In this document: positions 2,263 to 7,889 of the stretch, in pieces
Layout: every line of letters begins with the position of its first letter
Position numbering within the stretch: the stretch's first letter is position 1
Origin: Deinococcales bacterium
Lineage (GTDB): Bacteria; Deinococcota; Deinococci; Deinococcales; JAAFIG01
Direction: 5' to 3'
Length of the DNA: 28,815 nt
Assembly: GCA_031414595.1 (NCBI GenBank)
Contig: JANNVX010000042.1
Coordinates: 1-28,815 of the forward strand
Position numbers and translations under genes: made by a program
Notes under the pieces: model-generated
Databases searched by the model: none
Told to the model about the DNA's origin: nothing
What the model saw: only the letters and a program-made list of their open reading frames with translations

Positions 2263-2320
2263 GCAGGGCGATGACAAGGTTCGCCCTGCAAAAAAACATT
2301 GTCCTGTAGGGGCGAACCTT
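2263..2320. repeat. REP doublet; second REP truncated at the IS110/39-mer insertion
   Basis: GCAGGGCGATGACAAGGTTCGCCCTGCA (2263-2290), then the inverted GTAGGGGCGAACCTT (2306-2320). Same family as 476-505 and 28785-28813. Confidence 0.75.
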
Positions 2321-2345
2321 GCGACCCACGCCCGAAGCAGCCGTG

Positions 2346-3351
2346 TTAAAAGTCAAGCCCCACCCCCACTTTTGCTACCATCATGTCAACCCACGGAGTA
2401 CGGTCACGCATAATAGTATGCAAGACAGCTAATAATTTACGCATACAAGCCACCAAAGCCACCTTCCTAGCCTTCCCTGCCGCTACCAGTCGTTTATAAC
2501 GACTTTTATGGCAGGGTTGTGCTTAACGGCAGTCTGAGCCGCCATATACAGCACAGCGCGAACTTCACCACGACCACCACGAATTAATCGTGAGCCACGA
2601 TGACCACCACTGTCATGATTCATTGGTGCAACCCCAACTAAAGCGCTTAAACTCGAGTGAGAAGCACTACTTAATTCAGGTAAACTCAAGAGTAATGTCG
2701 CCGACACGACTGGTCCGACACCAGCGCGAACAGCCCGATAGGTGCTGTCTTGTGAGCAAGAAGGAACGCCTTGCAGCAGAGCATCTAAGGCTTTAAATTC
2801 CGTGTCAGAGCGAATTAAGGTTCGCATCTGACCGTCAACATCAGCAATTTCCTGCTCGAGAAAATCAATCACACTTTGAATACTGGCTTGAGTGGCAGCA
2901 TCAGTGGTGCTTCCAAGGCGATTTCGTTCCATTTTTATCATCTCGAGGAGTTGTCTGCGACGCGATACAATACTTTCCAAAGCTCTTTTTTGTTGACTGG
3001 CTGGTATCGTGATTTCAGGTCGTATTCGAGATGCAAATTCAGCGAGGATAACAGCATCTATCACATCGGTTTTAGCTAGTTTCCCATTGCTTTGGCAAAA
3101 TCTCGTACTTGCCTTGGATTGACTACTGCAATCGGTAAGTTTGCTTCGCTGCACGCTAAGAATACAGGTTGCTCGAATCCTCCTGTTGACTCACAAGTCA
3201 TTAACGTTGGTTTTTGTTTCTTGATGTATTTTACGAATTGTTTGATACCCTTGGGCGTGTTCTCAAAAGCTAAAACTTCAGCATTGGGTAGAATCACGAC
3301 ATCAAGTCTAGGTTTACAAACGTCAATTCCAACGAATACTTCCTGTGCCAT
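2346..3351 (-). pseudogene. IS110 DEDD recombinase/transposase with two -1 frameshifts and a 13-codon insertion
   Basis: Motifs VGIDVCK, CESTGG, VNPRQVRDF, KTDVIDA, GVGP, DSG and LYMAA. Frameshifts at about 3080 (AMG/KLAKTD) and about 2498; the latter continues YKRLVAAGKARKVALVACMRKLL...GLDF to a stop at 2346. Insert SCSQDSTYRAVRA splits the conserved VPGVGP. Confidence 0.92.
2723..2761 (-). mobile_element. 39-bp mini-element inserted in frame in the transposase
   Basis: GTTC-CT-[TCTTGCTCACAAGACAGCACCTATCGGGCTGTTCGCGCT]-GGTGTC. Removing it restores the codons for V-P-G-V-G-P. Confidence 0.85.
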
Positions 3352-3379
3352 ACGAACTCCTTGAGTAGTGCAGCTTCAA

Positions 3380-3555
3380 TATCGTCCTTCCTTGCAAAGC
3401 GAACTCGAGGTTCAGGCAGCGCGAGTAGCCCGCAAGGTGCTATCTTACGAGCAAGAAGCCGTTCGGACTCGGTTGAAGCGAAGTTCAGCACAACGACCTT
3501 GCTTCGGGACGATCTCAAGGATCAGGGTGCGTGTGGGTCTATTGTGCTGACTCCT
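3380..3555 (-). ncRNA. Predicted IS110 bridge RNA (target-binding loop 3485-3550; donor-binding loop 3384-3468, interrupted)
   Basis: Two stem-internal loop-hairpin modules. Loop segments CACGCACC/CCCGAAG match the element flanks, and ACGGCTGC/TTGCAAG match the element ends. RNA ends are estimated from the -10 box at 3567-3562. Confidence 0.75.
3418..3456 (-). mobile_element. 39-bp mini-element inserted in the bridge RNA left donor guide
   Basis: ACGG-CT-[TCTTGCTCGTAAGATAGCACCTTGCGGGCTACTCGCGCT]-GCCTG. Ungapped homologue of 2723-2761. Confidence 0.85.
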
Positions 3556-3561
3556 ATTATT

Positions 3562-3590
3562 AACTTACAAGGTGCTGTAGTTGTGGTCAA
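3562..3590 (-). promoter_or_regulatory. Hybrid sigma70-type promoter across the IS110 left junction
   Basis: TTGACC (3590-3585, in the flank), 17 bp, then TAAGTT (3567-3562, in the element). The right-end TTGACT (2356-2351) gives the same 17-bp spacing in the circular form. Confidence 0.55.
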
Positions 3591-3626
3591 GAAGGGTCAA
3601 GAAGGTGCTGTCTTATGAGCAAGAAG
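3570..3626 (-). repeat. Stack of nested left halves of the 39-bp element
   Basis: CT-[TCTTGCTCATAAGACAGCACCT 3624-3603]-[TCTTGACCCT 3602-3593]-[TCTTGACCACAACTACAGCACCT 3592-3570]-IS110. The right half of the last copy (TCGGGCGTGGGTCGC) lies at 2335-2321. Confidence 0.75.
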
Positions 3627-7787: not shown

Positions 7788-7889
7788 GCGTCATCGGCGT
7801 AACGCGGTGATGGCTCTCGAATCAGGTCAGGTCCGGAAGGAAGCAGCCTTAAGGGATGCCCATCAGGTGCCGTTACTCACCGATGACGC
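7788..7889 (+). ncRNA. ffs: Bacterial small SRP RNA (4.5S)
   Basis: Signature TCAGGTCCGGAAGGAAGCAGC inside a long hairpin closed by GCGTCATCGG/CCGATGACGC, followed by a T run. Confidence 0.95.

Follow-up and report, generated by a model that had tools for sequence, protein, structure and literature searches.

A probable defunct IS110-group insertion sequence with a predicted bridge RNA lies at the center of a dispersed micro-repeat in a Deinococcales genome

The window analyzed here is a 28,815-nucleotide (nt) stretch of DNA from a Deinococcales bacterium (assembly GCA_031414595.1, contig JANNVX010000042.1, positions 1 to 28,815). On its minus strand, positions 3571-2336 are very probably occupied by a defunct insertion sequence (IS) of the IS110 group, consisting of a gene for a bridge recombinase and, 5′ to it, the sequence of a bridge RNA. 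The element interrupts a short, dispersed palindrome, referred to below as the micro-repeat, which exists in variants named GACC type and GCTC type; the interrupted micro-repeat adjoins half of a repetitive extragenic palindromic (REP) sequence. The analysis was carried out by sequence comparison, homology, and folding. Loci, genomes, and contigs are designated by L, G, and C numbers. The features of the locus, in the direction of the minus strand, are as follows.

3603 to 3624, minus strand: outermost left repeat fragment, the left half (TCTTGCTC...GCACCT) of a GCTC-type 39-mer (from sequence)
3593 to 3602, minus strand: first 10 nt (TCTTGACCCT) of a GACC-type micro-repeat, broken after its own CT by the next repeat (from sequence)
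3572 to 3592, minus strand: left arm (TCTTGACCACAACTACAGCAC) of the target micro-repeat, the left target (from sequence and relatives)
3570 to 3571, minus strand: left CT core (homology with relatives extends through the core)
2338 to 3569, minus strand: body of the IS, starting TGTAAGTT and ending TTTTAACACGGCTG, 1232 nt including two 39-nt inserts
3485 to 3550, minus strand: predicted target-binding module (from stem covariation, folds, and guide match)
3374 to 3478, minus strand: predicted donor-binding module (from folds and consensus fold)
3418 to 3456, minus strand: GCTC-type 39-mer at the CT within the left donor guide (site empty in L031, L032, and L144)
2358 to 3351, minus strand: recombinase pseudogene (DEDD_Tnp_IS110 and Transposase_20) in three frames, 3351-3082, 3100-2498, and 2519-2358
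2723 to 2761, minus strand: GCTC-type 39-mer, in frame (13 codons) in the coding sequence; the CT there is single in relatives
2351 to 2356, minus strand: TTGACT, a −35-like hexamer in the right end, kept in all copies and in Deinococcus relatives
2336 to 2337, minus strand: right CT core
2321 to 2335, minus strand: right arm (TCGGGCGTGGGTCGC) of the target micro-repeat, the right target
2301 to 2320, minus strand: half of a GTAG-type REP (reverse complement GTAGGGGCGAACC) adjoining the micro-repeat, with no partner half on the left side

The pieces of the recombinase open reading frame (ORF) match PF01548 (DEDD_Tnp_IS110) and PF02371 (Transposase_20). A first-pass annotation of the same DNA had referred to two frameshifts and two inserts. 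The 39-nt inserts lie at 3456-3418 and 2761-2723, and a tblastn comparison with an intact relative bore out the frameshifts, which distribute the ORF over three reading frames. The intact relative in turn matched the recombinases of solved structure, with E values of 3.5e-39 for ISCro4 and 8.7e-38 for IS621. Residues D10, E54, D96, D99, and S235 are invariant in five intact relatives; going by position, they are the probable counterparts of the IS621 catalytic residues. The predicted layout, an N-terminal DEDD (RuvC-like) domain followed by a C-terminal Tnp domain with a serine, is that of the IS110 family. The same core dinucleotide, CT, stands on both sides of the element (3571-3570 and 2337-2336), and there are no terminal inverted repeats, the ends (TGTAAG... 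and ...ACGGCTG) being unrelated here and likewise in eight full copies.

A genome search found a single copy of the IS in the 4.49-Mb, 94%-complete assembly, in which no further IS110-family gene was found. In four DNA runs that may be the source of the window DNA, contigs are as deep over the IS as over its flanks, the integrated form is reproduced in pieces, and no contig spans an empty-site joint, the joints listed being other copies of the repeat. Because of the two frameshifts, the 13-codon insert, and the 39-mer that breaks the donor loop, the window copy is not able to move by itself; it is dead, a fossil.

Relatives were sought in 61 related genomes and then in all 19 genomes of the same uncultured Deinococcales family, of which eight carry the same IS. 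Full relatives were found at L031, L032, L033, L034, L035, L036, and L037, and ends or fragments only at L144, L148, L149, L143, L053, and L236; in five copies the ORF is intact, at 318 to 330 amino acids. A scan of a genome contig collection returned one 100% match, L055, which is identical to the L032 copy, the other matches being at most 52% identical, and a scan of metagenome contigs gave nothing above 51% identity. Thus, all close copies come from the 19 family genomes, and the best match outside the family is no more than 52% identical. The tree of the copies, with the window copy as WIN, is (WIN,(L031,L032)),((L033,L037),((L034,L035),L036)). In genome G014, two paralogs of the IS occupy different loci; by eye, they are ~98.6% alike across ~220 nt. 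The copies are related to one another and so do not represent eight independent events, and their flanks beyond the repeat differ, which places them at different loci.

The landing site of the IS is the central CT of the micro-repeat, a hairpin of ~37 to 39 nt with the form TCTTGACC(8-11 nt)GCAC-CT-(1-3 nt)CGGGC(2-5 nt)GGTCGC(T), and DNA folds put this CT in the apical loop. Counts of uninterrupted micro-repeats in the window genome range from 76 to 107 according to the search pattern. They share with REPs the character of a short, abundant, imperfect palindrome with a conserved hairpin, and they start with TCTTGAC, without a GTAG or CGTC head. Their arms covary in pairs (GACCAT/ATGGTC, GACCAC/GTGGTC, GACCCT/AGGGTC, GAACCC/GGGTTC, and GATTCT/AGAATC), with an arm complementarity of 0.77, compared with 0.63 after shuffling (maximum 0.68). 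The 11-mer implied by the window guides, GCACCTTCGGG, occurs 27 times in the genome, where its length by itself would predict ~2 occurrences, and 26 of these sites fall within micro-repeats. The micro-repeat is restricted to the family: 15 of the 18 other family genomes have 17 to 200 copies, and a search of 42 genomes from the rest of the order gave between none and two in each. At G006:C56:44165-44302, four micro-repeats stand in tandem with a 37-nt period.

That the reconstructed empty site is itself a member of this 39-bp family, as the first-pass annotation had it, is supported by the flanking halves, which belong to one micro-repeat subfamily and differ by one base from intact copies; the same left arm occurs uninterrupted three times elsewhere in the genome, at C22, C67, and C88. 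The expectation that other copies of the IS would be flanked in the same way also held, with the right arm of the micro-repeat at all 10 visible right junctions and the left arm at 9 of 10 left junctions (the exception being L037), at the same position within the micro-repeat. The L032 copy lies within three concentric micro-repeats.

The further proposal of a regular nesting, with the IS inside the 39-mer and the 39-mer inside a REP, stood on the right side of the locus only. There the micro-repeat abuts half of a REP, and an intact GTAG-type REP surrounds the same micro-repeat subfamily at C88 and C22. On the left side there are two repeat fragments instead, the 39-mer half (3624-3603) and the 10-nt start of another repeat (3602-3593), and this arrangement of TCTTGACCCT followed by the repeat is present at C67 without any IS. 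Because the left context resembles C67 and the right context resembles C88 and C22, one side of the locus was probably rearranged after insertion.

A further possibility, if a somewhat unlikely one, is that the two flanks have separate origins rather than being halves of a micro-repeat that was once intact at this locus: after insertion, one side would have been replaced by recombination with another copy of the repeat or of the IS, and the neat nesting of REP, repeat, and IS would be partly an artefact. Such a replacement would account for a left context (39-mer half, TCTTGACCCT, and left arm) that is that of the C67 copy beside a right context (right arm, AA, and REP half) that is that of the C88 and C22 copies, and the remainders of the two outer repeats are indeed missing on the right. 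A second locus also bears on it: on the minus strand of C106, near offset 46519, the left arm of a repeat terminates in AACACGGCTG-CT, in which CT follows the final 10 bases of the IS right end; the right arm of that repeat is identical to the window right arm, so that it looks like the scar of another copy, probably a second copy of the IS that has been deleted. However, the two window halves are of the same subfamily, one base off intact copies, and, as described below, the right guide fits the right flank perfectly.

Upstream of the recombinase gene lies a structured RNA with two predicted loops, which the window copy forms only after removal of 3456-3418. The stems, loops, hairpin, guides, and inserts described by the first-pass annotation were each found in place. 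In the target module, an outer stem is formed on the minus strand by TCAGCACAA (3550-3542) and TTGTGCTGA (3493-3485) and an inner stem by GACC (3539-3536) and GGTC (3498-3495); these enclose the loop strands CACACGCACCCT (3535-3524, containing the left guide) and GTCCCGAAGCAA (3510-3499, containing the right guide), between which stands the hairpin GATC-CTTGA-GATC (3523-3511). The donor module has an outer stem at 3478-3472/3380-3374, an inner stem of GTCC (3468-3465) and GGAC (3387-3384), a left donor guide that the insert splits into 3464-3457 and 3417-3414, a hairpin at 3413-3401, and a loop at 3400-3388 containing the right donor guide. The modules are nearly identical in plan: in each, a closing stem encloses a small hairpin that stands between a 5′ loop strand of 12 nt and a 3′ loop strand of 12 to 13 nt.

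The same first module recurs across the leaders of the relatives, with stems of 9 and 4 bp and, on each side of a 4-bp hairpin, a loop strand of 12 nt. Over 10 leaders it is 94% paired, six of its pairs are altered on both sides, and none of 500 shuffles did as well. The intact L032 leader, of 187 nt, folds into two modules at −60.1 kcal/mol (z = −3.3). Both modules also emerge when the 10 leaders, stripped of their inserts, are folded to a consensus, in which the outer donor stem likewise shows compensatory changes. As for the window leader, its two modules appear only without 3456-3418; when the insert is retained, it pairs with the right donor guide and the predicted donor loop is lost. The two-loop fold expected of the RNA once freed of its insert was therefore obtained, and relatives lacking the insert fold in this way natively.

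We placed the guides in the register that excerpts of Durrant et al. (PMC11208160) describe, in which a left guide reads the same as the top strand and a right guide is complementary to that strand. In the window, as had been claimed, the core plus right flank, CTTCGGG (2337-2331), has its exact reverse complement in the right target guide, CCCGAAG (3508-3502). This relationship holds throughout: in eight of eight copies, the right target guide is the reverse complement of CT plus the next five bases at 7/7 positions, the right flanks covered being TCGGG (three copies), GACGG (two), AACGG, TACGG (that of L032), and ATCGG. When loops and flanks were permuted, only 12 of 40,320 arrangements matched as well as the real pairing. 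The left target guide, taken as 7 nt plus the first core base, agrees with its flank at 7/7 positions in L034, L035, and L036 and at 6/7 in L148 (n = 9). In the window, the left guide CACGCACC has just GCACC in common with the real left flank, and it matches CGCGCACC at 387-394 at 7/8 positions; both matches in the first-pass annotation were thus correct, the agreement with the real flank amounting to 4/7 plus the core base. The predicted covariation between target loop and flanks is accordingly clear for the right guide and partial for the left, with a full left match in 3/9 copies only.

The donor guides could be read in a similar way. ACGGCUG+C, the last seven bases of the right end plus C, is present in 10 of 10 leaders, and UUGCAAG or close variants face the left end, CT-TGTAA, with one wobble (G-T) or a bulge. 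The ends are invariant among the family copies, so that donor covariation is readable only from Deinococcus relatives; those with a different right end (ACAATTG) have a matching donor guide. Relatives in Deinococcus with ~50% identity and the targets GTGACTG-CT-CAG and TTATGCG-CT-AATCA also have matching target loop strands at the same positions. An automated parsing of ends and guides at 160 distant loci succeeded for 4, too few for a test.

The likeness of loops and flanks might instead reflect DNA leftovers, pieces of the repeat that were captured or recombined into an otherwise ordinary folded leader. The left loop strand does have the same sequence and orientation as the left arm of the repeat, and recombination at the DNA level evidently takes place there, because the 5′ end of L149 (G016:C667) has been deleted exactly from the left arm of the micro-repeat to the left-target-guide loop, the two being fused directly across shared sequence. 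The right guide, however, is in reverse-complement orientation and tracks five flank variants in 8/8 copies, which is strong counter-evidence; moreover, the stems show compensatory changes, and the same loop positions fit unrelated targets in the Deinococcus relatives. We consider leftovers an extremely unlikely explanation and favor guides within a bridge RNA.

On this reading, the left target guide, comprising the seven bases to the left of the core plus the first core base, would pair with the bottom strand, and the two target guides together would specify GCAC-CT-nnCGG, which is the apical loop of the micro-repeat and is available in tens to hundreds of copies in the family. The donor guides, ACGGCUG+C and UUGCAAG, would recognize the joined ends of the IS. 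By analogy with the IS621 model, movement would proceed through a circular or single-stranded intermediate with strand exchange at CT. In such joined ends, the right-end TTGACT would be followed, after 17 nt, by the left-end TAAGTT, a candidate that matches a −10 element at only three of six positions by eye.

In integrated copies, the left arm of the repeat puts a TTGACC or TTGATC hexamer 15 to 17 nt before the TAAGTT of the left end. This arm (CTTGACC, ~12 nt, CT) is similar to the right end of the IS (CTTGACT, 13 nt, CT). The repeat arm may be a mimic that supplies a read-in promoter, a candidate that the promoter scan did not list.

Several observations weigh against the bridge RNA interpretation as a whole. 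The left target guide matches at only 4 or 5 of 7 positions, including the invariant GCAC, in the window, L032, L033, L037, and L144, and the 4/7 match of the window guide to its own flank includes none of the three variable positions. Such mismatches may stem from tolerated off-target insertion or from drift after insertion. The sequence that would match both window guides in full, CACGCACCTTCGGG, has no occurrence in the genome. Opposite the second core base, the guide has C instead of U in 5 of the 10 target loops and never has U in the donor loops (C in seven, A in three). No Rfam family was found to cover the bridge RNA, and a promoter scan, which covered the integrated copy and not the joined ends, listed no site of the form repeat-arm TTGACC, 17 nt, TAAGTT. 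Of these points, the C or A opposite the second core base implies that core pairing differs from the IS621 description: the left target guide includes the first core base consistently, and the base facing the second is unconserved in both left guides.

In the Rfam search, the region gave one sub-threshold match on the other strand (sX15, 22 bits versus a gathering score of 55). The only Rfam match in the window is a bacterial small signal recognition particle RNA at 7791-7889 on the plus strand, with 68 bits.

The 39-mer in the donor loop is no one-off lesion of the window copy: 9 of 12 IS copies have a repeat at this CT within the left donor guide. A GACC-type repeat is found there in L033, L034, L035, L037, L148 (two copies, in tandem), L149 (three, in tandem), and L236, and a GCTC-type 39-mer in the window and L036; the site is empty in L031, L032, and L144. 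The GACC variant (TCTTGACCCCACTACGCCACC...), which fills the site in one clade, was found only inside IS leaders (nine of nine matches with ≤3 mismatches, in five genomes), whereas the GCTC variant is a common genomic family. L033 and L034 are 71% alike overall, and their donor-guide repeats differ at 1 of 39 positions. Either the repeat has been conserved within the RNA, or recombination has passed it between IS copies that share a genome. On folding, the leaders of L033 and L036, which contain the donor-guide repeat, gave no defined donor loop (z ~0), and thermodynamics therefore lends no support to a neatly extruded hairpin.

These occupied guides bear on whether the window copy might still be mobile, its frameshifts bypassed or a recombinase supplied in trans and the donor-loop 39-mer tolerated. 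Among the 9/12 copies with a filled donor-guide CT are L033 and L035, whose ORFs are intact, and the two paralogous copies of G014, at different loci, both contain the repeat. Nevertheless, the window copy has two frameshifts and a 13-codon insert, its genome yielded no other IS110-family gene and no second copy, the insert pairs with the right donor guide at the expense of the predicted donor loop, and no contig crosses the empty site. Continued mobility is thus very unlikely, and we regard the window copy as dead.

Micro-repeats also behave as inserts elsewhere in the element. At six repeat insertion sites whose empty state is known from the alignment of IS copies, CT is duplicated at four and only T at two. 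The inserts are 36 to 40 nt long, and the ORF of L034 is still open. L149 shares two repeat-bearing coding-sequence sites with L036 and L034. Micro-insertions of a second kind also exist: a 32-nt palindrome (AGTTCGTACCGTCATCCCGGTACGACGGGATG), unrelated to the repeats, lies in the coding sequence of L037, at block 725 of the alignment of IS copies.

This behavior raises the speculative and rather improbable idea that micro-repeats, as CT-bounded hairpins of 34 to 37 nt, are the smallest passengers of bridge-type recombination. They would be moved by an IS110-type enzyme as single strands or single-stranded circles and would preferentially enter the CT used by the IS, as well as the IS's own donor guide; the IS and the micro-repeat would then be reciprocal parasites. 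In its favor, 50 of 107 genomic micro-repeats are preceded by CT, against a background of 5.4%, and the repeats form onion-like nests at the central CT as well as tandem arrays. Single-strand excision by IS110 elements is reported in two preprints (10.64898/2026.08.31.748434 and 10.1101/2025.10.25.684509), and MITEPpu9 offers a precedent (PMC12288879). On the other hand, the repeat ends do not match the donor guides of the IS, the target sites share little beyond CT, and no IS110-family gene was found in 7 of the 16 repeat-bearing genomes (such genes are present in 9 of the 19 family genomes). Matches to Y1_Tnp track the repeat somewhat better than IS110 does, occurring in 15 of 16 repeat-bearing genomes versus 1 of 3 repeat-free genomes.

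IS200-like Y1 transposases were considered as movers of the micro-repeat and rejected, the five strong loci being mutually unrelated and none having a micro-repeat nearby. The single REP-associated tyrosine transposase (RAYT)-like gene of the window genome goes with the GTAG-type REP and not with the micro-repeat.

A RAYT-like protein of the Y1 type, 234 amino acids long with a weak PF01797 match (23 bits), is encoded at L150 (G000:C98:105348-108518). Its middle is interrupted by a low-complexity stretch with a GTAGGGGCG-type REP, and the neighboring ORFs look, by eye, like the M and S subunits of a type I restriction-modification system.

The genome is also marked by the hexamer CTCGAG, which occurs 23,235 times in 4.49 Mb, or about once per 193 bp, ~20 times the flat expectation (for example, at 57-62, 263-268, and 677-682 of the window). 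Each of the 60 most frequent 11-mers includes it. GCGATCGC is absent, and GAGCTC (6 occurrences), GGATCC (24), and GTCGAC (27) are nearly so. The pattern looks like that of the hyper-iterated palindrome HIP1, with a different word.

The element thus falls in a known class, the IS110 elements that target REP sequences; what goes beyond it is how the micro-repeat behaves and how recurrently the donor guide is occupied. Two features may be of wider use. The copies provide a natural demonstration, outside the Proteobacteria, of a right target guide reprogrammed base by base as it follows the variable dinucleotide at the center of the host micro-repeat. In addition, L031 and L032, with an empty donor guide, and L033 and L035, with a hairpin in it, form pairs that bear on the tolerance of donor guides to insertions and hence on bridge RNA engineering. 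The micro-repeat itself, confined to one family, mostly CT-bounded, nesting in itself, and inserting in frame into genes, poses a problem in the movement of very short DNA.

The RNA-guide explanation of IS110 targeting dates from 2024, and in the portion of PMC11208160 on which we draw, IS621 of Escherichia coli is described as having a non-coding RNA in its left end with a target loop and a donor loop, a CT core, and REP as its natural target. The present element shares with IS621 (structures 8wt6) a homologous recombinase, the proteins matching over nearly their whole length, together with a left-end non-coding RNA predicted to have a target loop and a donor loop, guides of which the left ones would pair with the bottom strand and the right ones with the top, a CT core, and a repeat as target. 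It differs in its right target guide of 7 nt (CT plus five), compared with 4 in IS621, and in the register of its left guides, which hold only the first core base consistently; it also targets another repeat, which itself shows nesting and appears to be mobile.

Insertion of IS110-family elements at a fixed position of a palindromic repeat has long been known for IS621, ISPpu9, ISPpu10, and ISPa11, as excerpts of Tobes and Pareja 2006 (PMC1525189) and of PMC12288879 indicate. In Pseudomonas putida, a stem-loop in the target adds specificity for ISPpu10, and ISPpu9 has a small non-autonomous partner, MITEPpu9 (from parts of PMC12288879 and of the preprint 10.64898/2026.03.19.712850). Like ISPpu9 and ISPpu10, which occupy one fixed position of a species-specific palindromic repeat, the element described here belongs to the IS110 group and is inserted at a fixed position of a palindromic repeat. 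Here, however, the core lies in the apical loop of a 37- to 39-nt hairpin; unlike the case of ISPpu9, no partner element with IS-like ends was found among the sequences searched here.

REP and REPIN elements reportedly go with RAYT transposases, a connection associated with the work of Bertels and Rainey in 2011 and of Di Nocera et al. in 2013. The micro-repeat resembles them as a short, abundant, lineage-restricted hairpin with a covarying stem, and the window genome also has GTAG-headed REPs and a RAYT-like gene; it differs in lacking a GTAG or CGTC head, in being mostly CT-bounded and self-nesting, and in entering coding sequence. In Nostoc, small dispersed repeats of tens of nucleotides were reported by Elhai et al. 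in 2008 (Genome Research) to be nested in one another and in other elements. That comparison concerns another phylum and another sequence, and very small size and nesting are what the Nostoc repeats have in common with the micro-repeat that received this IS.

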